NCBI GenBank assembly: GCA_043753995.1
Contig: JAYUVP010000087.1
Location: 1-13,560, forward strand
Length of the DNA stretch: 13,560 nt
Reading direction: 5' to 3'
Source of the DNA: Fibrobacterota bacterium
GTDB lineage: Bacteria; Fibrobacterota; Fibrobacteria; UBA11236
A program made the position numbers and the translations under genes. Positions within the stretch are counted from its first letter, which is position 1; each line of letters begins with the position of its first letter. This document shows, piece by piece, positions 2,900 to 12,452 of the stretch. The notes below the pieces were generated by a model. That model did no database searches. It had not been told where the DNA came from and worked only from the letters and a program-made list of their open reading frames with translations.

Positions 2900-2952
2900 G
2901 AACTTGCAGTGTGTGGTAAGGGTTGAGTTAATTTGGTTGCGCTCTACGTTTG
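2900..2952 (+). promoter_or_regulatory. Candidate promoter(s) of the lipoprotein-sigma operon
   Basis: TTG (2923-2925)-N19-TACGTTTG (2945-2952) matches the Bacteroidota housekeeping TTG-N19-TAnnTTTG pattern, 12 nt before ATG 2965. An overlapping GAAC (2900-2903)-N18-GTTG (2922-2925) resembles generic ECF promoters. Both motifs are short. Confidence 0.3.
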
Positions 2953-2964
2953 AAAGCTCTCGAA

Positions 2965-5283
2965 ATGACGATTCGCAAATTGGCTGGCTTGGCTTTGCTA
3001 GTAACGCTTTGGGCGGGATGCTTTCGCGATGAGGGAATTGTGGATGTCACCAAGCCGGGAAATATTGCTCCGCTGGCGAAGTTTCGCGGGCGGGCTTATA
3101 ACGAGGGCGACACGACCTTGCCCTCCAATCGATTGCTGGAGCTTGTTCATCCGACCATTGCCTTGGTCTATCACTATATAGGTACCAGGGAAAATATTCG
3201 CACCATGACCGAAGGCGTGGTGGCGACTTCACCGCCTTTTGCATTTCAAATCGAGATGAAACAGGCTCCGCCATCCAGCATTCAGCACGATGATGAGGTC
3301 GCCGTTGGATTGTTTTGGCTTTTTTCCGATCGCAATGGGAATGGCAAATTCGATCGCGGTACGCATCCTGAATACGCCAAGAAATTGCAGGAAATCGATT
3401 CTCTGACTCACCTTTATTATCAAGTGAACGATTCTCTGTTGGCTATTAGCGAAATCCATCTTGAAGGCGTGGCTGTGGAGGAAACCACTTTGGTGGGAGC
3501 ACAAGGCCTCACTCTGATTCGGAACGGAATCAAGGTCGACACGGTTTGGCCAGCCATGCCGGCTTTTTCGACCACGGCCATGGATGCACCATTTGCACGT
3601 CAAAAGGTTGTTTTGGCCCAAGACAGGTGGGAGAAGTTTTTTGATTTGAGGAAAAGGTCTAATTCCATAAGCTATTCGGCCATACCCAATGCAGACTATT
3701 CGCTCGAAATGGTGATGCGATATTCCAGGCGACTATTTCCGAAGTCCGGTATGGAAAGCAAATTCAATCAAGGCGTGATTGACTTGGCATTACTTTCGAC
3801 CAAAAAGTCGGTCTTAGCTACGAAATATCAAGGCGAAGCCTTTCAAAAAGGATGGCTCGATTATCCCTATACCGGATTTGAAGAACCGGGCGCCGATTGG
3901 GGTGCAGGGAGAAGCCGAGATCAATTTGTCTTTTTCTTTCCAACATGGAAATCCATTGATATAATGAGGCGCGCAGAAAAAAGCAGTTCTTTCAAAATCG
4001 CGAATGTTCATCAAATCGTACCGGGCTATAATTTGATGGAATGCGATGATCAATACAATTGTCGACGATTGGATGAGAGCGCCGAGATTAAAATCTACAT
4101 GGGGAAATCCGAACTTTATTTCAATCCGCCTTCTGTAACCAAGCCCTTTGCCTTACCCACAGTCGATTCGACGCTATGGATTAAAAACGTTGACGTTGAG
4201 GGGACTTATCCATTTCAGCCGGGTATTGATTTCTCGGTCCAAAAAGTTGGTGCCGATTTTTGGTTGGATGCGGCATTATTCGGAATGACTCGGCTGCAAA
4301 TGGTGGACAGCGTGCGCGGAGTTGGTATGGGTCTCGCTATGCAAATCCAATTCGTGTCAAATGAAAAGCATGAAGTCGAAAAAATGATTTTGGATTGGAA
4401 AGGCGAACGCTATGTCGCGGTGAAAACATCTAACCGAATCAGCGCAGGTAGATCGGAAAACGTGACAAACCATGCTCAAGCACAGGAAAGTGAATTAAGT
4501 ACTGGCATCACGGTATCCCTGAAGCAAAGCTATCGGTGGTATGGACTGGACACTTTGAAATTTTCGGAAGCATCCTCCAAATCGGTTTGGCTGAGTGGCA
4601 AGGGCATTCCGAAGCAAAAATTCGTGGCGGTTGATTCAAACACTTTGATTTCTCAATTCAGCGGCATTGAATTGAAATGGCGGCGCAAATCGGATCAAAT
4701 GGAAGGGGAATGGTATTTATTGACGGGCGGTACAGAATATCGCATTCCACCGATTTTCTTAATGGGCACCCAAAACGATACTGCGGGTCTGGGCGCATAC
4801 GGTTTGATACAGGATGTACAGGGAACAGCAAGAGAAACCTTTGTCGATTTTCAGGGTAAACCAAGATTTTCTTGTGCCGAGGATTCGCTTTATTTGGTCA
4901 ATGGTGATTCCGGATTACGACGCAATCTGCCGGTTCAGCGAAACGATCAAATTGCTTTGGAAGGGGACGGCGAATTTGAGATTGAAGTTCCCGTGGATAG
5001 TTCCTCTGATAGCCTTAGCATAACCCTTGATTTCTGTGGAGCAAAAAACTCGGGCAAACAAGCAGCCTTAATGCGCGTGCTTTGGAAATCCGATTCGGCT
5101 GATTCGTGGTCGGAGATGATGCCCAGTTTTTGGCTTCCGGCCCTTTCGAATGGGTCTCGCAAAATGCACCTCCACTTCGCCACTCCCTTGGGTCGAATAT
5201 TGGGGTTCAAGTTTGAAAATTTGAGCCAACCAGGAATAACTCCTCTCTTGTCTCTCGATCGTTATCGAATTTATTCAAAATGA
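2965..5283 (+). CDS. Large multidomain lipoprotein of unknown function with a Ca-binding-like loop and two DUF3471-like repeats
   Basis: ORF track starts at TTG 2950; ATG 2965 gives MTIRKLAGLALLVTLWAG-C (basic N-region, hydrophobic core, lipobox). 'FSDRNGNGKFD' is a Dx[DN]x[DN]G-like loop. Two approx. 80-aa beta-rich segments ('VEGTYPFQPGIDFSV...GERYVAVK' and 'LKQSYRWYGLDTLKF...GTEYRIP') resemble DUF3471 by eye. Stop overlaps the sigma start (ATGA). Confidence 0.8.
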   Translation: MTIRKLAGLALLVTLWAGCFRDEGIVDVTKPGNIAPLAKFRGRAYNEGDTTLPSNRLLELVHPTIALVYHYIGTRENIRTMTEGVVATSPPFAFQIEMKQAPPSSIQHDDEVAVGLFWLFSDRNGNGKFDRGTHPEYAKKLQEIDSLTHLYYQVNDSLLAISEIHLEGVAVEETTLVGAQGLTLIRNGIKVDTVWPAMPAFSTTAMDAPFARQKVVLAQDRWEKFFDLRKRSNSISYSAIPNADYSLEMVMRYSRRLFPKSGMESKFNQGVIDLALLSTKKSVLATKYQGEAFQKGWLDYPYTGFEEPGADWGAGRSRDQFVFFFPTWKSIDIMRRAEKSSSFKIANVHQIVPGYNLMECDDQYNCRRLDESAEIKIYMGKSELYFNPPSVTKPFALPTVDSTLWIKNVDVEGTYPFQPGIDFSVQKVGADFWLDAALFGMTRLQMVDSVRGVGMGLAMQIQFVSNEKHEVEKMILDWKGERYVAVKTSNRISAGRSENVTNHAQAQESELSTGITVSLKQSYRWYGLDTLKFSEASSKSVWLSGKGIPKQKFVAVDSNTLISQFSGIELKWRRKSDQMEGEWYLLTGGTEYRIPPIFLMGTQNDTAGLGAYGLIQDVQGTARETFVDFQGKPRFSCAEDSLYLVNGDSGLRRNLPVQRNDQIALEGDGEFEIEVPVDSSSDSLSITLDFCGAKNSGKQAALMRVLWKSDSADSWSEMMPSFWLPALSNGSRKMHLHFATPLGRILGFKFENLSQPGITPLLSLDRYRIYSK

Positions 5284-5840
5284 ATGCGCCATTGATCCCA
5301 AGCCTAGAAGAGGTTTTCAAATCGCATTCGAGCATGGTCTATCGCATTTGCCGACGTTATGTCAAAGGTGAGGAAGATGCTCAGGATTTGGCGCAAGACG
5401 TTTTTTTAAAGCTTCATGATAAACTGGCATCGTTTCAGGGGCATTCTTCGCTGACGACCTGGCTTTATCGCGTAACCGCCAATATTTGCATGGATCATAT
5501 TCGGTCGAGAAAATTTCAAGGTATGCTGGATATTGACGACTTGGATGAAATCGTCACACATAACCTTTCGGCTTCGGGAAATGCCGAATTGGCTAAAATC
5601 GACCTGGAAAGGTTATTGAAGCATGTGCAACCCAAAACCCGCGAACTTTTATTTTTGGTGCTGGCCGAAGGGCTAAGCTATACCGAAGCAGGGGAAATGG
5701 TCGGCATGGAAAAATCAGCCGTGGCGAAACAAGTCACCCGGTTTTTGGCCAGCCGAAGCGGCAAGGTGCAAGCAGGAAAACCAGGCATTTTTAGCGCAAT
5801 AATCACCATTGTCCACGCTACCCTGATCGGACGCGTCTAA
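5280..5840 (+). CDS. ECF-type RNA polymerase sigma-70 factor
   Basis: 186 aa; region 2 'VYRICRRYV..EEDAQDLAQDVFLKL...FQGHSSLTTWLYRVTANICMDHIR'; region 4 'RELLFLVLAEGLSYTEAGEMVGM..SAV'; no region 3. Confidence 0.95.
   Translation: MNAPLIPSLEEVFKSHSSMVYRICRRYVKGEEDAQDLAQDVFLKLHDKLASFQGHSSLTTWLYRVTANICMDHIRSRKFQGMLDIDDLDEIVTHNLSASGNAELAKIDLERLLKHVQPKTRELLFLVLAEGLSYTEAGEMVGMEKSAVAKQVTRFLASRSGKVQAGKPGIFSAIITIVHATLIGRV
5809..5840 (+). promoter_or_regulatory. Candidate ECF promoter, copy 1 (TTGTCCACG-N16-CGTCTAA), overlapping the 3' end of the sigma gene
   Basis: TTGTCCACG 5809-5817 and CGTCTAA 5834-5840; the same elements and spacing recur at 8251-8282; 5 nt upstream of anti-sigma ATG 5846. Confidence 0.65.
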
Positions 5841-5845
5841 ATCGT

Positions 5846-6649
5846 ATGCTCAAGTCGCGCCCGCCATCGAATTCTCCCGAAGAGCCAATGAATTCCGGAT
5901 TCTCTTTATTTCAAATTGAGCGCTTTCTTTTGGGAGAGCTTTCCCCTGCCGAGCAAGGCGAAATCACCCGTGCCGCAGAAGGCAATCCGAAGCTGGCAGC
6001 CTATATTCAAAGGGCTCGGGTGTGGACCGAAGAGTCTAAGCAATTGAAGCTTCCACCTAGCCCGGTAGCTCGTAAGCGGGGCGACTGGGAATGGCTTGCG
6101 GGGATGAAAAATCGCTTGCAGGGATGGGTGAGCGCCTGGGAAAGGCCAGCCTGGGCCATGCCTGGATTAGCCATGGCCTCGGTGATTTTGGTGATCGGTG
6201 TTTTTTCGATCACCACCTTTCAGGGCAATCCTAATAATTCCGTGAAAACCTTGAGCCCCAAGGGTGGCCTTGGCGCCGATATGTCCATCGAGCATAAAAC
6301 GGTGAGCTTTACTGCAGGTTCGGATATCGCTGTAAGTCCAGGGGATACCTTGCGGATTTCCTATCGCAGCTCGGATTCCCTGTTTTTCCAGCTTTGGAAT
6401 AAAGATTCGCATGGTGAATTTAGCCGCTTGCATCAAGCCGAGGGAGAGTCCCTGCCCGCTTCGGCCAAGTGGAAGCATAGTGGAAAAAGTTTGGTCTTGG
6501 ATCAGGGTGAAAGCCCTCGCCAACTCGTGCTGATTTGGGCTGGCTCCAAGTCCGAGCTTTTTGATTTGGGAAAAAGATTAAGCGATGGTGGGAAAATCCC
6601 AGAAGACAAACGCGCTGTATTTCATATACACTCCACTAAGACTCAATGA
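5846..6649 (+). CDS. Putative transmembrane anti-sigma factor with a C-terminal DUF4384-like periplasmic domain
   Basis: Immediately follows the ECF gene. N-terminal 'IERFLLGELSPAEQ' is typical of anti-sigma domains but lacks the HxxxCxxC zinc ligands. One TM helix 'WAMPGLAMASVILVIGVFSITTF' (about 6152-6220), linker 'TLSPKGG', then 'VSPGDTLRISYRSSDSLFFQLWNKDSHG' (DUF4384-like by eye). Alternative start ATG 5888. Confidence 0.8.
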   Translation: MLKSRPPSNSPEEPMNSGFSLFQIERFLLGELSPAEQGEITRAAEGNPKLAAYIQRARVWTEESKQLKLPPSPVARKRGDWEWLAGMKNRLQGWVSAWERPAWAMPGLAMASVILVIGVFSITTFQGNPNNSVKTLSPKGGLGADMSIEHKTVSFTAGSDIAVSPGDTLRISYRSSDSLFFQLWNKDSHGEFSRLHQAEGESLPASAKWKHSGKSLVLDQGESPRQLVLIWAGSKSELFDLGKRLSDGGKIPEDKRAVFHIHSTKTQ

Positions 6650-8235
6650 AAGTCGCTTTTTTCATAGGACTTTTTCTAGTAGCCTGGGTGTCGGCGAATA
6701 TTTCCTCGCCCATCGAAAGATACGCCATCGTCATCGGTAATAATCGCGGCCTGCCCAAGGAGAGGCCATTGAAATACGCAGCCAAGGATGCTGCAGAAAT
6801 GGCCCGAGCTTTGATTCGCGGCCAGGCCTTTGAAGATGACCGAGTATATTGCTTGCAAAATCAGCCACTTGAAAACATTCGTAATTCTATTTCGGAACTT
6901 CGTGGGCGTTTATTCGAAATCAAAAAAACCGGTAAAAAGACGTTGGTGATGGTGTATTTCAGCGGCCATGGCAGTAAAGGGGGACTGCATATCGAGGGTC
7001 GGCTGTGGAATCGGGAAGACTTTGTGGCCGCCTTCGACGAAATTCAAGGCGATTTAAAAATCTTGATCTTGGATGCTTGCGAATCAGGAGACTTTTTGCG
7101 CAGCAAAGGCATGAAATTAATTGATGAACGAATCATCGAACAAGAGGATTTACTGGGTACGCATGGCCGAATTCTTTTAAGCGCCTCCGCCAAGGGTGAA
7201 GCCGCCCAGGAAAGCGAAGATTATCGCGGCGCCGTTTTCACCCATCATTTGCTGAACGGAATTCGTGGCCTCGCAGATTATGACCAAGACGGGCAGATTC
7301 GCTTGCTCGAAGCTTTCGACTATGCCCAAACCGCCACGAGAAAAGAAAACAATTTCGGTGAAAGCGCTATGCAATCACCATCTTTTGATTTCGACGTAGT
7401 CGGCGAGAACGATCCCGTATTGGCCCGAATGGAAAAGAAAGACGTCCAGGTGCAATTCGTGGGATTAGATGCGGGCACCTTACGCGTCTTCGCCTATCCT
7501 TACAAGGAGGTGGCCTATCATCTTTATCTCACGGGAAGAAAAACTGCCAATATATCCATTCCCTCCGGACGCTATCTCTTTGCGGTGGGGGAAGCAGAAA
7601 AGTGGCTAGTGGCTGAATCAGATCTGCGTTGGGGGGCGCAAACTCAAATCCGAGCAGAAAGTTTTCGCCAAAAGCCTCGTCCGTTCTTTTCGCCGAAAGG
7701 TGGTGTGCCCGCCACGCTTTGGCAAGAACAGGTTGTTTTGCCATCCTTGCGGAGAGTCGCGGCCGTCGATCCTATCAACTTGTTTGAACTTGCTTATTCT
7801 CTGGGGCAAGCGGCGCATGATTTGACGCTCACGGTTGGATATGGCAAAGGCCGCGAAAGCCTGAGCACATGGGGCCTAAGCCAGCAAATGACGCAGTATC
7901 GCTTAGGATTGGGCAGCGCTTGGCCGATTTTCACGCGCTGGGGTTTTCAAACTTCGCTTGGCGCAGAAGCTTCGGTGAATATTGTGCAGCAGCGTGTGCA
8001 TGATAGTCGCCTGGACAATACTGACCTCGCTAGCGGCGGGCTTCGCAGCGATGCCGAGCGAAGCGCCTTGGTTTACGGTATCAGTTTGCCTGTTGGCGCA
8101 AGCTTTGATTTGCCCTGGCGAATGCGCCTGGCTGGGTCTTGGGGACCCGCGGCCTATACTTACAGGGAAGCGGCCGAAGGCCGCGTTTACAAGCTCCGCC
8201 CCGAGTTTAGGCTCGGCGGCGGACTGCGGTTTTAA
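6646..8235 (+). CDS. Exported caspase-family (peptidase C14) protease with a C-terminal outer-membrane beta-barrel-like domain
   Basis: Signal peptide MKVAFFIGLFLVAWVSA; 'RYAIVIGNN', 'LKYAAKDA', 'YFSGHG' (His108, 6967-6969), 'ILDACESG' (Cys145, 7078-7080), 'AAQESEDYRGAVFTHHLLNGIRGLADYDQDGQIRLLEAFDY'; amphipathic beta-strands ending in 'EFRLGGGLRF' with terminal Phe. ATGA overlap with the anti-sigma gene. Confidence 0.92.
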   Translation: MKVAFFIGLFLVAWVSANISSPIERYAIVIGNNRGLPKERPLKYAAKDAAEMARALIRGQAFEDDRVYCLQNQPLENIRNSISELRGRLFEIKKTGKKTLVMVYFSGHGSKGGLHIEGRLWNREDFVAAFDEIQGDLKILILDACESGDFLRSKGMKLIDERIIEQEDLLGTHGRILLSASAKGEAAQESEDYRGAVFTHHLLNGIRGLADYDQDGQIRLLEAFDYAQTATRKENNFGESAMQSPSFDFDVVGENDPVLARMEKKDVQVQFVGLDAGTLRVFAYPYKEVAYHLYLTGRKTANISIPSGRYLFAVGEAEKWLVAESDLRWGAQTQIRAESFRQKPRPFFSPKGGVPATLWQEQVVLPSLRRVAAVDPINLFELAYSLGQAAHDLTLTVGYGKGRESLSTWGLSQQMTQYRLGLGSAWPIFTRWGFQTSLGAEASVNIVQQRVHDSRLDNTDLASGGLRSDAERSALVYGISLPVGASFDLPWRMRLAGSWGPAAYTYREAAEGRVYKLRPEFRLGGGLRF

Positions 8236-8282: not shown

Positions 8283-8369
8283 TCCTTTACAACCCGCGTG
8301 ACGGACCGAAGGTGTTTCCGACAAAAACCTGCTTTTGGTAATGCCCGCCAGAACATCCACGAGAGACGT

Positions 8370-9242
8370 ATGACAAATATTTTTCGACTTCTGTCAATCG
8401 CTCTGACCTTTAATGCCTTGACCCATGTTGCTCACTCAGCATCGAATCAATGCTACTATAGCAGAGAACATTTTCTTGGGATGGGGAGCACATACACCCT
8501 CGACTCCACCGTCATCATTAAAAGAAAAAATCAGGAACTTGTAAGTCGTATTGCTTTTACATATAAAATAAACGAAGACACTATTTATTCCTCCTATAAA
8601 GTAACCCGCCCCGATGATTCAATACTTGTTGATTTGGCCGGTTCATTTGCTTTCAAAAACCGAGTATGGCTTTTTACAGACACGTCAGACCACGATACCA
8701 ATCTTATCGTGAATACCACCGCCACGTATTTTAATGATAAATACAAAATAGACTCTATCGTTGAAATGCGTATTTCCAGTACGGCAGAGTTGGATGAAAA
8801 AGAAATTCATTACAATACTGATTCGGCCCAAGTCCAATACAAAATTTATCCAAATCGCCCTCCAATTATAGATTCCACAGTATTTAATCAAGCCGGCCTT
8901 GTTAAATATTCCATTGAGGGTGACTCCATTCACGCGATTGACACATGCATTTCATTAGATACCATTTGCGTTTGTCATGGTGACAGACAAGATCGCCGTT
9001 TGGAATATCAAGTCATCAATGATCAAATTCAGTATGAACTTGAATTTTTTGTTGGGTATGAATCAGAAATACGTCACTTCTGGAGCAACAAGCAATCGAG
9101 CATTCATGGGTTGAATTCAAAGAGACGCGCCGTAACGCAATTCGACAGAACAAAGCGATTTACTCTCGATGGACGACAAGTTTACATCTCCAATGTGCCC
9201 CGTATCCCTAAATCACTCACTTGGCCACGAAAAGCTCAATGA
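8370..9242 (+). CDS. Secreted hypothetical protein with a basic C-terminal 'FTLDGR' tail
   Basis: ORF is open from GTG 8298; ATG 8370 gives a signal peptide (MTNIFRLLSIALTFNALTHVAHS-A). Beta-rich D/T/Y body; Lys/Arg-rich C-terminus containing FTLDGRQV; AT-rich codon usage. Confidence 0.75.
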   Translation: MTNIFRLLSIALTFNALTHVAHSASNQCYYSREHFLGMGSTYTLDSTVIIKRKNQELVSRIAFTYKINEDTIYSSYKVTRPDDSILVDLAGSFAFKNRVWLFTDTSDHDTNLIVNTTATYFNDKYKIDSIVEMRISSTAELDEKEIHYNTDSAQVQYKIYPNRPPIIDSTVFNQAGLVKYSIEGDSIHAIDTCISLDTICVCHGDRQDRRLEYQVINDQIQYELEFFVGYESEIRHFWSNKQSSIHGLNSKRRAVTQFDRTKRFTLDGRQVYISNVPRIPKSLTWPRKAQ

Positions 9243-9886
9243 CAAATCAATTGCGTTTCGGAAATGGGCGCGACTTTTCACAGATTAAAAGTTTAATAGC
9301 AACACTTACGCTATTCCTTGCTTCCAGCCTTTGGGCCGAAGGTATTAGCTCACAACTTAATTTTACGATTGGACCCGCTTTTGGAATTGCCCATGCCGTC
9401 GATGGAAAGCATGGTGGCATGGCTGCGGGAATCGTGTTTTTGGCATCCACCAGTCACCTTGAGATGGGCTCGTCCATTCAATTCATTGGTGAAATAACCA
9501 ACCCATTGAGCCATCACAAAACCGATCCTTCCGAGAGATATCTGAGCACTGAGTTTATTTCAGGACTAAAGCTTCCGATAAATAAAGTGATTTTTTCTGG
9601 AGGGCTTGGAGGCGGACTGCTTTGGGGTAAAGCACGCACTGAACTTTTTCGTAGCGATACGAATTGTGTGATGGGATTCTTTTCCATAGAATGCTTGGAT
9701 ACACCAGAAGTCACTAATCGTTACTATTCTCAAAATATCAGTACGATTTCCGTTTCTCCCTATGCTCGCGTAGATTTTCAACTAAAGCGATTTTTCGGAT
9801 TAGGAGTGATGTATAAAGCAATTTTAAATGATAAACAAGGTCTTGGCGTGTTTTCGATTTTATGGTATTATGGTAATAGGCAATAG
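9239..9886 (+). CDS. Hypothetical exported protein, probable small outer-membrane beta-barrel
   Basis: ATG 9239 overlaps the upstream stop (ATGA). Hydrophobic segment 'LIATLTLFLASSLWA-E'; alternating Gly/aromatic strands ('VIFSGGLGGGLLWG', 'FFGLGVMYK', 'FSILWYYG'). Confidence 0.65.
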   Translation: MTNQLRFGNGRDFSQIKSLIATLTLFLASSLWAEGISSQLNFTIGPAFGIAHAVDGKHGGMAAGIVFLASTSHLEMGSSIQFIGEITNPLSHHKTDPSERYLSTEFISGLKLPINKVIFSGGLGGGLLWGKARTELFRSDTNCVMGFFSIECLDTPEVTNRYYSQNISTISVSPYARVDFQLKRFFGLGVMYKAILNDKQGLGVFSILWYYGNRQ

Positions 9887-10400
9887 TGTCATAGTTGATT
9901 TAAGGAAAAAATCTGCTCATTATGCCCTCGGATTCTTGCTCACTATCTGCGGATGCGATGTCATTGATCCTCAGGATCATGGGCCTATCGATACCCAATA
10001 TTTATGGCAAGCTTGGGAAACCACGGGTTGGCATGGAGACCTGAGGGATTTTCCAGCAGGCACAGTAATCGTGGAGCGATATCACAACGATTCGACAGCA
10101 TTTGAAAATACAGGAACTGGGCCAGAATATCATATCCCGCGATATTGCAGACTTTATCACTGCAATCCTGATAACCCTGACACCTGCGTCTGGTACCACG
10201 ACAACTATTTTCATATTGAATCGGATACAGTATTGAATTTTTCTATTCCAACCATTAATGATAAGCGCACCATTTTAAGGTTGACGGACTCGAACTTCAC
10301 TTACCTCGATCGATCAATGCGCGCCCACTTTATCCCAAGCAAACGCGTTTTGGCAGACACCAATGGCGGCGATTTGACCATTCATTCCTCCGGTGAGTGA
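9870..10400 (+). CDS. Hypothetical lipoprotein, lipocalin-like
   Basis: ORF is open from 9828; ATG 9870 is the nearer start. 'RKKSAHYALGFLLTICG-C' lipobox; 'YLWQAWET' and 'TILRLTDSNFTY' resemble the GxW and ILxLTxxxL motifs of bacterial lipocalin-like domains. Start uncertain. Confidence 0.65.
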   Translation: MVIGNSVIVDLRKKSAHYALGFLLTICGCDVIDPQDHGPIDTQYLWQAWETTGWHGDLRDFPAGTVIVERYHNDSTAFENTGTGPEYHIPRYCRLYHCNPDNPDTCVWYHDNYFHIESDTVLNFSIPTINDKRTILRLTDSNFTYLDRSMRAHFIPSKRVLADTNGGDLTIHSSGE

Positions 10401-12116: not shown

Positions 12117-12452
12117 TCACGCAAATACGCGAAGCGAGCGGCAATAATCGCGTAAAATCGAGAGCCCACCGGTATAGCCCAAATCTCGCAGCTCCATATA
12201 GAGCCGCATGATTTTGCCCTGGGGATTGGCCTCAATGCGGGCATTTACCAGGGGAATATAGGGTTGCAGCTTGCGGCTGCCGGAGGGACGGCCTCGGCGT
12301 TTTCCCGGTTGAAACACGCGTTGATGCACGTGATTGTAAACCGTCCGACGGGAATAGCCCGTGGTGGCGGCAATGCGGGTTTGGGTCCAGCCTTGGCGAT
12401 GCAATTCCAAAATGCTCTGATGATGCTCGGGGAGCTCTGTTTGCGGGTTCAT
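12117..12452 (-). pseudogene. IS21-family IstA transposase N-terminal (HTH) fragment, or a domesticated HTH protein
   Basis: 111 aa; 'ILELHRQGWTQTRIAATTGYSRRTVYNHV' HTH and 'RKLQPYIPLV...RLYMELRDLGYTGGLSILRDYCRSLR' match the IstA N-terminus. The ORF stops before the DDE domain; no istB and no terminal repeats seen. Confidence 0.75.

Follow-up and report, generated by a model that had tools for sequence, protein, structure and literature searches.

The stretch of DNA analysed here (the window) is an entire 13.5-kb contig from an uncultured Fibrobacteria genome. Reading of its open reading frames revealed a four-gene operon on the + strand, to which all coordinates below refer, comprising genes for a lipoprotein (2965-5283, 772 aa, ATG start within a frame that opens at TTG 2950), an ECF-type sigma factor (5280-5840, 186 aa), a predicted single-pass anti-sigma factor (5846-6649, 267 aa) and a secreted C14 caspase-like protease with a predicted C-terminal outer-membrane anchor (6646-8235, 529 aa). 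The arrangement described in the earlier note was reproduced when the coordinates were re-read directly from the sequence: all four genes are co-oriented, the lipoprotein and sigma genes share an ATGA overlap (5280-5283), as do the anti-sigma and caspase genes (6646-6649), and the sigma and anti-sigma genes are separated by a 5-nt gap (5841-5845). These overlaps and the short gap suggest translational coupling, which we count in favour of a sigma switch operated by the caspase. A regular-expression search yielded a weak candidate promoter (2904..2934; TTGCAG, 18-nt spacer, TTAATT) about 30 nt 5' of the lipoprotein start. A clearer TTG(C/A)AG-N17-TAGAT motif ('CAAAGGTTAGAT') was found immediately 5' of the first gene in the related modules L029, L030, L031, L033 and L038, irrespective of whether that gene encoded a lipoprotein or the sigma factor.

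Protein components of the operon

Profile searches left the assignment of the ECF sigma factor (5280-5840) intact, with matches to Sigma70_r2 (1.1e-18) and Sigma70_r4_2 (7e-6) in Pfam and to TIGR02937 in NCBIfam (88 bits vs a cut-off of 42.9), all above cut-off. The protein encoded from 5846 was expected to carry one transmembrane helix and an extracytoplasmic domain. Indeed, its sequence contains one hydrophobic stretch (residues ~101-127), and the AF2 model (pLDDT 80.9) exhibited a helical N-terminal domain (21-98), a transmembrane helix (108-123), a flexible linker and a DUF4384-like beta-sandwich (145-263), the last of which is predicted to be periplasmic. Among the 93 family members, 64 matched the NCBIfam model NF052375 ('anti-sigma factor'), which, together with the modelled domain layout, argues that the 5846 protein is an anti-sigma factor. 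The proposed DUF4384 assignment stood for relatives (29/93 with E<=0.01, the best match having 1.9e-6; one paralogue matched with E 0.0037, which does not reach the cut-off) and did not extend to the window's own protein, which matched no family in Pfam or NCBIfam. ECF25-type anti-sigma factors with DUF4384 are listed in the supplement of PMC7826278, the part covered here making no mention of a caspase. The gene-caller version of the anti-sigma factor (P0001, 253 aa) begins at Met15; we favour the longer form starting at 5846 because homologues with 58% identity keep the N-terminal extension. At E<=1e-3, the anti-sigma family comprised 4453 representatives.

The caspase matched Peptidase_C14 in Pfam (1.2e-13, 51.7 bits vs a cut-off of 21.4) and begins with a signal-peptide-like N-terminus (MKVAFFIGLFLVAWVSA), in line with the secretion claimed for it. 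Its AF2 model (pLDDT 86.9) contains a caspase/metacaspase-fold catalytic domain (6709..7437, residues 22-264), for which Arabidopsis metacaspase 4 was the best fold match (6w8r; Z 21.5, rmsd 2.7, 209 aligned residues; VIA-align). The predicted dyad of His108 (6967-6969, motif YFSGHGS) and Cys145 (7078-7080, motif LDACESG) was intact and invariant in 58/58 homologues. The DxDxDG loop noted earlier turned out to be part of a complete 12-residue EF-hand-type loop, D211-E222 (7276-7311): positions 1 and 12 as well as V/I at position 8 were kept in all 58 homologues, D/N at position 3 in 56 and D/N at position 5 in 57. A middle beta-sandwich (7381..7677, residues 246-344 by AF2 secondary structure) showed no profile similarity to the anti-sigma sandwich in hhalign.

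The C-terminal part (7717..8232, residues 358-529) had been described as barrel-like and ending in Phe. Fold comparison (VIA-align) identified it as an eight-stranded OmpA-like outer-membrane beta-barrel, matching 3dzm (Z 16.8), the OprF barrel 4rlc (Z 16.5, rmsd 2.1), NspA (Z 15.8), OmpW (15.7) and OmpA (15.4). The terminal Phe was present in 49/58 homologues, and Pfam OMP_b-brl was matched by two of them. Both ends of OmpA/OprF/NspA-type barrels face the periplasm. The caspase should thus face the periplasm as well and would share this compartment with the DUF4384-like domain of the anti-sigma factor.

A barrel protein with a periplasmic domain, paired with an inner-membrane anti-sigma factor and an ECF sigma factor, is also the scheme of FecA/FecR/FecI, where the outer-membrane barrel carries a periplasmic N-terminal domain. 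This parallel to cell-surface signalling invites a reading, which we consider distinctly unlikely, of a trans-envelope sensor complex without anti-sigma cleavage: the periplasmic part of the caspase would dock on the DUF4384-like domain, much as FecA-type transducers use their signalling domain to dock on FecR-type anti-sigma factors, and the substrate of proteolysis would be an incoming signal protein or the lipoprotein, whose conservation with the window-type triad fits such a role. However, the fold matches point to an 8-stranded barrel without a channel or plug for ligand uptake, in place of a TonB-dependent 22-stranded transducer with its plug; a FecR domain is likewise missing, and the periplasmic domain is a protease whose catalytic dyad is invariant.

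Conservation of the triad and its surroundings

A lack of co-occurrence in other genomes had been named beforehand as grounds for refutation, but the genes were found together in related as well as in distant loci. The same genome holds four paralogous sigma/anti-sigma/caspase triads (C87, C82, C355 and C240). In 17 of 19 related loci retrieved with the anti-sigma factor, the order sigma, anti-sigma, caspase was kept with the caspase directly downstream, the two exceptions being a cut contig and an inserted lipoprotein gene; the sigma gene lay upstream of the anti-sigma gene in 18/19. Metagenome loci found with a distant (~20%-identical) anti-sigma factor contained the caspase in 20/27 cases and the sigma factor in 25/27, while the seven loci lacking the caspase had <=202 bp downstream or were cut. 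The triad was recovered from at least 15 genomes besides this one. Across the phylum, the anti-sigma profile matched 194/251 genomes, a tally that takes in the unpublished genome G021, and in one large genus (g16) the module was near-universal and single-copy (74/76). The core unit therefore consists of sigma factor, anti-sigma factor and caspase in a strongly conserved order.

The genes around this core differ: the window has a lipoprotein, the C82 triad is accompanied by a 909-aa CarboxypepD_reg-repeat protein, and the C355 triad by unknown proteins. The lipoprotein of the window (lipobox LWAG-C19) matched no Pfam, NCBIfam or PADLOC family and gave no Atlas lead. Its homologues adjoin window-type triads in 8/10 Fibrobacteria loci, suggesting that it represents a lineage-specific fourth conserved gene of the module. 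In 11 sequences of 23-65% identity, a DxNxNxxxD loop (122-130) was invariant along with Cys19, C360 and C366.

ECF operons commonly hold regulon members beside sigma and anti-sigma genes. The caspase could in the same way be an output of an autoregulated operon and not its activator. Inactivation of the anti-sigma factor would then fall to a general site-1 protease or to a conformational signal, and the caspase would act on envelope proteins other than the anti-sigma factor, be it in quality control, in processing of the lipoprotein or of surface proteins, or in regulated autolysis. The variable accessory genes would fit a variable substrate set, whereas the fixed position directly after the anti-sigma gene, in a family of thousands, is not expected of a mere regulon member. 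We regard this explanation as possible but somewhat improbable. In its favour, such operons were placed in the context of cell death by Asplund-Samuelsson et al. (2012, PMC3501461), who reported that four metacaspase operons of Myxococcus xanthus have a sigma-70-family factor in common and that the same layout is found again in Anaeromyxobacter, Haliangium, Sorangium, Ralstonia and Fibrobacter, a gene association that is the same as the one observed here. The myxobacterial neighbourhoods mentioned in the earlier note were thereby matched, and the association itself is not new; the anti-sigma factor, DUF4384-like domain, outer-membrane barrel, cleavage motif and mechanism are not described in the part of that article covered here.

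Caspase-family control of ECF sigma factors also has precedents in defence. In DdvS/DdvA of M. xanthus, an ECF sigma factor is likewise held by a single-pass anti-sigma factor, and for the periplasmic CHAT domain of DdvA, a caspase-superfamily His-Cys protease, self-directed site-1 cleavage at the juxtamembrane linker was proposed, with RseP as the subsequent site-2 protease (PMC11506125). The DdvA TPR-CHAT part is fused to the anti-sigma factor and works in trans between the partners of a dimer, whereas the caspase here is encoded apart from the anti-sigma factor, as a C14 protein that has its own barrel, its model matching DdvA with a Z of only 9.9, against 21.5 for metacaspase 4. In type III-E craspase (Cas7-11/Csx29, Csx30, Csx31, RpoE), a caspase-family protease similarly cleaves an anti-sigma-like protein and modulates an ECF-type sigma factor, and some Csx30 C-terminal domains are DUF4384 (bioRxiv 10.1101/2022.08.17.504292); that system is cytoplasmic, RNA-guided and of the TPR-CHAT type. 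An anti-phage or abortive-infection role akin to either, to which a weak PADLOC 'caspase' match (E 2e-4) might point, appears very remote. DdvA controls a CBASS/CRISPR island, but neither cas, CBASS nor any other known defence gene was found in the 13.5-kb window with Pfam and PADLOC, as already noticed for cas. In addition, the flanks are the housekeeping genes prmC, prfA and rpe, the near-universal, single-copy occurrence in g16 is unlike that of patchy defence islands, and the protease and its substrate site are predicted to be periplasmic, not cytoplasmic.

Lys-Gly motifs as candidate cleavage sites

Orthocaspases cleave after basic residues (PMC6426788), and three conserved Lys-Gly motifs were found in the operon, all in or beside segments with pLDDT <50 in the AF2 models. 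In the anti-sigma factor, Lys139-Gly140 (6260..6265) is a candidate site-1 cleavage site in the predicted periplasmic linker; residues 138-140 have pLDDT <50 and lie five residues ahead of the first strand. Both K and G were conserved in 93/93 sequences of alignment A4, and P3 was Arg in 77/93; in the window the site reads S-P-K-G. In the caspase, Lys154-Gly155 (7105..7110; R152-x-K154-G155) belongs to the loop that follows the catalytic Cys, borders a low-confidence loop (157-167) and represents a candidate autoprocessing site (R152 56/58, K154 57/58, G155 58/58). A candidate self-release site, Lys351-Gly352 (7696..7701), is situated in the sandwich-barrel linker, where residues 352-356 have pLDDT <50; K351 is K in 54/58 homologues and R in the other four, G352 was kept in 58/58 and G353 in 46/58. 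The latter site and that of the anti-sigma factor have matching contexts in the window (FSPKGG and LSPKGG). Three Chitinophagaceae caspases without a linked sigma factor lacked R-x-K-G, and the K-G motif does not belong to the DUF4384 repeat as such, since the repeats of P0087 lack it.

The shared K-G, mostly R-x-K-G, fits a basic-P1 protease that would cut both itself and the anti-sigma factor. Because the motif is common to both proteins, it provides a concrete candidate site for the earlier proposal that the caspase is a dedicated site-1 protease. An invariant shared motif is not expected if the caspase were merely an output of the operon, and a sensor complex would leave the conserved K-G in a flexible anti-sigma segment unexplained. 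The inconsistent co-variation at P3 speaks for the output explanation: among 34 distinct cognate pairs, P3 Arg was shared in 17, absent from both partners in two and discordant in 15, so that consistent co-variation of anti-sigma factor and caspase does not go beyond K-G. Against site-1 cleavage stands also that the window's own anti-sigma factor has no P3 Arg. In relatives with long linkers, the motif keeps its place beside the beta-sandwich, and 70-100 residues separate it from the membrane; an RseP-type protease would then be faced with a long stub after cleavage. Alternatively, the anti-sigma motif may cap the sandwich domain structurally, and the caspase R-x-K-G may form a loop of structural or active-site importance in place of a processing site.

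A caspase-driven sigma switch as the preferred reading

In the E. coli sigmaE/RseA/DegS/RseP system, an ECF sigma factor is freed from a single-pass anti-sigma factor by periplasmic site-1 and subsequent M50 site-2 cleavage. The components here would follow the same scheme, and a candidate RseP-type M50 site-2 protease is present in the same genome (G000:C109, E 1.4e-65). DegS, a serine protease equipped with a PDZ sensor, is anchored in the inner membrane and encoded elsewhere than sigma and anti-sigma, whereas the candidate site-1 protease here is an operon-encoded cysteine protease with a predicted outer-membrane tether.

Taken with the conserved gene order, the folds and the shared motifs, this suggests that the caspase probably activates the sigma factor through cleavage of the anti-sigma factor. 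In the resting state, the sigma factor would be held at the inner membrane by the helical N-terminal domain of the anti-sigma factor. An envelope signal, perhaps with the lipoprotein as intermediary or with Ca2+ acting at the EF-hand-type loop, would activate the caspase, whose maturation would involve self-cleavage behind the Lys of the R-x-K|G loop beside the catalytic Cys. It may also cut itself at K351|G352, at the sandwich-barrel junction, leading to release from the outer membrane. Unless this putative release occurs, the tethered enzyme might fail to get to a site only ~12-16 residues away from the inner membrane, which counts against the scheme. Site-1 cleavage of the anti-sigma factor would then occur after the invariant Lys139 of K|G, just ahead of the DUF4384-like domain, and the RseP-type M50 protease would remove the remaining stub, thereby freeing the sigma factor for its presumed output regulon. 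We assign a probability of about one half to the reading that these loci represent a widespread envelope signalling module, built from an ECF sigma factor, a DUF4384-like single-pass anti-sigma factor and a barrel-tethered, periplasm-facing C14 (orthocaspase/metacaspase-like) protease, in which the caspase would drive anti-sigma cleavage.

Gene organization and distribution of the module

The 5.2-Mb source genome (356 contigs, 97% complete), which the names of close homologues put among uncultured Fibrobacteria, contributes the window as one entire contig, on which ORF reading placed four co-oriented genes on the plus strand: a lipoprotein gene (2965–5283), an ECF sigma factor gene (5280–5840, also supported by Pfam and NCBIfam), one for an anti-sigma factor bound to the membrane (5846–6649) and a caspase gene (6646–8235, also supported by Pfam). 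The sequence reading agreed with the arrangement claimed in the earlier note, namely ATGA overlaps at 5280 and at 6646, and 5 nt between the sigma and anti-sigma genes. The module is flanked by housekeeping genes (prmC, prfA, rpe and a PQQ-type dehydrogenase gene). Between the dehydrogenase gene and rpe, a 111-aa helix-turn-helix protein (HTH_23/HTH_29) is encoded on the minus strand (12117–12452). The roughly 680 bp separating prfA from the lipoprotein gene (2271–2950, G+C ∼0.58–0.61) contained no credible gene and no Rfam match; a 160-aa ORF (2269–2751) was without family and of odd composition. Downstream of the module, three more plus-strand ORFs for exported proteins of 314, 221 and 190 aa were found (8298–10400), the first with a signal-like N-terminus and the last with a lipobox (LTICGC). 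This stretch has a clearly lower G+C content (0.41–0.46) than the module (∼0.5); its ORFs had no family match in Pfam, NCBIfam or PADLOC and no homologues beside related modules.

Rfam families were absent from the window, and generic sigma-70 promoter and terminator scans performed at or below chance. Motif comparison revealed an element resembling a promoter, TTG(C/A)AG-N17-TAGAT with a conserved CAAAGGTTAGAT, upstream of the first gene of the module, be it the lipoprotein or the sigma gene, at five related loci (L029:1155, L030:3478, L031:3464, L033:717 and L038:1163). The corresponding element in the window (2904–2934) is degenerate, and the motif is rare in its genome (GTTAGATA occurs 13 times). 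Among the data sets listed for the locus, two were of DNA, both from one sediment study, and none of RNA. As stated before, no cas genes are present: Pfam and PADLOC detected neither cas genes nor any PADLOC system or defence gene within the 13.5-kb window, the sole hit being a weak ‘caspase’ match in PADLOC. Against this background we regard the idea that the four genes form a defence module as very improbable.

The genome carries four paralogous sigma/anti-sigma/caspase triads (contigs C87 [the window], C82, C355 and C240) and one sigma-less caspase. The latter, an orphan paralogue of 772 aa on contig C234 (25593–27911, minus strand), keeps a TRLKGG loop, has no adjacent sigma gene and adjoins a TonB-dependent-receptor-like gene with a Plug domain. 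When the anti-sigma factor alone was used as query, it was found in 15 of 61 relatives. Across 19 loci of other genomes the co-occurrence expected from the earlier note was borne out: the caspase gene lay directly downstream in 17 and the sigma gene upstream in 18, with contig ends truncating L019 and L020. Within the phylum, a family profile matched 194 of 251 genomes (128 of the 169 high-quality ones; the 251-genome tallies include the genome G021). The family was present in single copy in 74/76 genomes of one genus, and relatives of the source genome showed up to ten matches. A metagenome scan with two anti-sigma factors ∼20% identical to that of the window yielded 27 loci with the caspase gene directly downstream in 20, the other seven having at most 202 bp left or being cut, and with a sigma gene in 25. 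Searches with single proteins (the caspase in genome_contigs, the anti-sigma relative P0096 in metagenome_contigs) found nothing. Two anti-sigma relatives, considered here as proteins, bear the source names Myxococcales and Rectinemataceae.

Lipoprotein genes recur in this neighbourhood as well. Among ten Fibrobacteria MAG loci with wider flanks, eight of which are the same places as in the 19-locus set judging by identical motif contexts, eight contained a homologue of the window lipoprotein (phmmer 1e-15 to 1e-99), either 5′ of the sigma gene or directly 3′ of the caspase gene; the other two loci were cut upstream. The lipoprotein was missing from the other three triads of the genome, whose neighbours differ, and we thus consider the triad as the core and the lipoprotein as a subtype-specific component. 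Two further arrangements were observed. Overlapping parts of one MAG contig (L031/L034) carry tandem modules, the first comprising lipoprotein, sigma and anti-sigma, then a 178-aa caspase remnant in which the N-terminus and a terminal GHQF survive; it is followed by a complete sigma/anti-sigma/caspase/lipoprotein set and, further on, by a caspase and a lipoprotein without sigma. Locus L026 (1474–3711) shows the order sigma, anti-sigma with an HxxxCxxC zinc motif, 432-aa lipoprotein and an ORF with a caspase-like start at the locus edge.

Domain architecture of the encoded proteins

The sigma factor (186 aa) scored above the cut-offs for Sigma70_r2 (67 bits) and Sigma70_r4_2 (26 bits) in Pfam and for TIGR02937 in NCBIfam (88 bits, cut-off 42.9), so that its assignment as an ECF sigma factor was borne out. 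Containing only regions σ2 and σ4 within the ∼170–200 aa typical of the class, it belongs to the ECF (group IV) sigma factors; the best NCBIfam equivalogs all remained far under their cut-offs. An extra hydrophobic C-terminal tail (residues 157–186, window 5748–5837, …GIFSAIITIVHATLIGRV) is absent from the three paralogues in the genome.

The AlphaFold2 model of the anti-sigma factor (pLDDT 80.9) displayed helices at residues 21–28, 34–46, 48–66 and 78–98, a TM helix at 108–123, a low-confidence linker (126–134 and 138–140) and a β-sandwich (145–263), and therefore points to a single-pass anti-sigma factor with a DUF4384-like periplasmic domain. With a predicted N-terminal helical domain, one TM helix and a gene directly 3′ of the sigma gene, the protein has the layout of class I membrane anti-sigma factors. 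The anatomy proposed earlier, one TM helix followed by an extracytoplasmic domain, thus stood in the model, and the DUF4384 label came from the relatives. The window protein had no match to DUF4384 (PF14326) at E ≤ 1, while 29 of 93 family members matched at E ≤ 0.01; the paralogue on contig C82 reached E 0.0037 (17.7 bits, cut-off 27 bits). Likewise, the window protein found no family in Pfam or NCBIfam, NF052375 included, while 64 of the 93 aligned members matched NF052375 (‘anti-sigma factor’) and 44 matched NF010501. A profile built from the window protein and five relatives retrieved 4453 representative proteins at E ≤ 1e-3; most have 250–300 aa and align over their full length. In PDB sequences, neither a profile nor a single-sequence search found anything for the anti-sigma factor. 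One relative (P0096) alone bears the NCBI name ‘ActD-like’, and a search of the literature on ActD found nothing. Four others (P0091, P0103, P0119 and P0122) possess low-complexity periplasmic linkers of 70–100 residues.

The caspase was modelled from 58 homologues (pLDDT 86.9) and consists of three parts: a caspase-fold domain (residues 22–264), a β-sandwich (246–344) and an eight-stranded barrel (358–529). In fold comparison the catalytic domain came closest to Arabidopsis metacaspase 4 (209 residues aligned at rmsd 2.7, Z 21.5), with caspases, legumain and MALT1 ranking next, and searches of PDB sequences with profile and single sequence gave only metacaspase matches to the N-terminal part. 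The protein belongs to Peptidase C14 (PF00656, 51.7 bits, cut-off 21.4) and has the caspase fold with a His–Cys dyad; His108 and Cys145, located where the earlier note had placed them, are invariant in all 58 homologues. Asp48 and Asp143, the latter within D-A-C145, are likewise invariant and sit where metacaspases place the aspartates of the S1 pocket. The reported DxDxDG loop proved to be a complete EF-hand-type loop (D211–E222) with every liganding position conserved, which suggests that the caspase may be under Ca2+ control. Such control is common among metacaspases.

The C-terminal part superimposed on TtoA, the OprF barrel, NspA, OmpW and OmpA (Z 15.4–16.8). A C-terminal Phe is present in the window protein and 49 of 58 homologues, two of the 58 matched OMP_b-brl in Pfam, and the N-terminus is hydrophobic. 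These features upheld the proposed barrel and define it as a predicted OmpA-like eight-stranded outer-membrane barrel, with a signal-peptide-like N-terminus and an aromatic C-terminal residue. Both ends of OmpA-type barrels face the periplasm, and to our knowledge an eight-stranded barrel offers no translocation pore; we therefore infer that the caspase domain hangs from the outer membrane into the periplasm.

The lipoprotein (772 aa) starts with a signal peptide and a lipobox, MTIRKLAGLALLVTLWAG-C19, as read from the sequence. The Cys is invariant in 11/11 homologues, marking the protein as a probable bacterial lipoprotein. An ESM Atlas search gave no usable match (best 0.77). The family keeps a Ca2+-loop-like DxNxNxxxD (DRNGNGKFD, residues 122–130, window 3328–3354) and a Cys pair, C360/C366 (window 4042–4062).

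A shared K-G motif and the proposed relay

In the alignment of 93 anti-sigma factors, Lys139 and Gly140 were the only columns without variation (93/93); they lie within the consensus [DE]-x-[TIV]-R-[LI]-K-G, where the P3 residue is Arg in 77 sequences. A corresponding R-x-K-G occurs in the caspases nine residues past the catalytic Cys (R152 in 56/58, K154 in 57/58 and G155 in 58/58) and borders a low-confidence loop (157–167). This position presumably corresponds to the intersubunit linker that is cut during caspase maturation. A second caspase site, K/R-G-G, is conserved in 58/58 both at K/R and at G and lies at the junction of sandwich and barrel, in a low-confidence linker (352–356). In the window, LSPKGG stands in the anti-sigma factor and FSPKGG at the second site of the caspase. 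The R-x-K-G motif is no inherent part of DUF4384 repeats, being absent from those of P0087, and was missing from three Chitinophagaceae caspases without sigma. Aligning the two families with hhalign revealed no common domain, and only 13 columns, which surround the K-G motifs, were aligned (E 0.41). Orthocaspases cleave after basic residues (PMC6426788). It is chiefly this common motif that newly supports an enzyme–substrate relation between caspase and anti-sigma factor, and it marks K139–G140 as a candidate site-1 cleavage site. We favour the earlier proposal of regulated proteolysis, in which the caspase would serve as a dedicated site-1 protease of the anti-sigma factor, with a probability of about 0.5. 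The site-2 cut would then fall to an M50 protease, and one is available in the genome (PF02163, E 1.4e-65; contig C109, 2283–3515, minus strand).

Co-variation between the partners was sought in 34 distinct cognate pairs: P3 was Arg in both proteins in 17, in neither in two and discordant in 15, so no consistent pattern emerged, and P2 was identical in only five of 19 pairs (about three expected by our own estimate). The caspase could instead be an output of the regulon, a reading that we consider rather unlikely. In long-linker anti-sigma relatives the R-x-K-G lies directly before the β-sandwich, 70–100 residues from the membrane, and could thus be a structural domain cap; equally, the sandwich could dock and present the motif. 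A sensor complex of the cell-surface-signalling type, operating without cleavage, we consider quite improbable. Prediction of the complex of caspase 21–529 and anti-sigma 128–267 (score 0.01, mark 0.32) was counted neither for nor against cleavage.

Extending the site-1 protease reading, a self-contained periplasmic relay can be outlined, which as a whole we regard as unlikely. An envelope or Ca2+ signal would trigger the outer-membrane-anchored orthocaspase, which would mature through a cut in its own R-x-K|G loop and leave its barrel via a cut at K351|G352. Once freed, the caspase would cleave its cognate anti-sigma factor, whose DUF4384-like domain would present the same K|G motif for the cut. 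Several mutually insulated copies might operate in one cell (four in this genome; as many as ten matches to the anti-sigma factor in relatives).

Relation to known systems and significance

The association of sigma and metacaspase genes is already known: Asplund-Samuelsson et al. noted sigma-70/metacaspase operons in 2012 in Myxococcus, other Deltaproteobacteria, Ralstonia and Fibrobacter, the passages cited giving no anti-sigma factor, motif or mechanism (PMC3501461). The supplement of PMC7826278, in the part cited, lists ECF25 anti-sigma factors that carry DUF4384. The closest mechanistic precedent is DdvA, whose periplasmic CHAT domain is, in the part cited, proposed to self-cleave before RseP acts (PMC11506125); there the protease is fused to the anti-sigma factor, whereas the window encodes a separate C14 protein. 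Craspase with Csx30 can be viewed as the counterpart in the cytoplasm, and the tails of some Csx30 proteins are DUF4384 according to the preprint section cited (bioRxiv 10.1101/2022.08.17.504292). The type III CRISPR sets (craspase and CalpL/T/S) are linked to cas genes and use a cytoplasmic CHAT or Lon-SAVED protease, whereas the window encodes a secreted C14 protease with a predicted outer-membrane barrel and no cas gene within the 13.5-kb contig, which places it outside these sets. In the literature searched we found no proposal that a separate C14 protease activates an ECF sigma factor, no link between a C14 protease and an anti-sigma factor outside CRISPR and DdvA, and no defined physiological substrate for a bacterial caspase homologue in this context.

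Beyond the known triad, the window shows a 772-aa lipoprotein as conserved partner, as well as a subtype whose anti-sigma site copies the second K-G site of the caspase (SPKGG) and not the R-x-K-G loop. Bacterial caspase homologues are abundant, and ECF sigma factors rank among the major signalling classes, often with an unknown activating protease. The module offers a candidate pair, a dedicated protease and, in the adjacent gene product, a putative scissile bond (K139|G140), and is compact enough for reconstitution. If the caspase indeed acts on the anti-sigma factor, a mechanism would become available for anti-sigma/caspase pairs in their thousands, the profile counting 4453 representatives, and caspase-controlled sigma release, as in craspase and as proposed for DdvA, would become a general CRISPR-independent principle. 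The relay, if true, would provide the first defined physiological substrate for bacterial caspase homologues and a new protease class in ECF sigma control.
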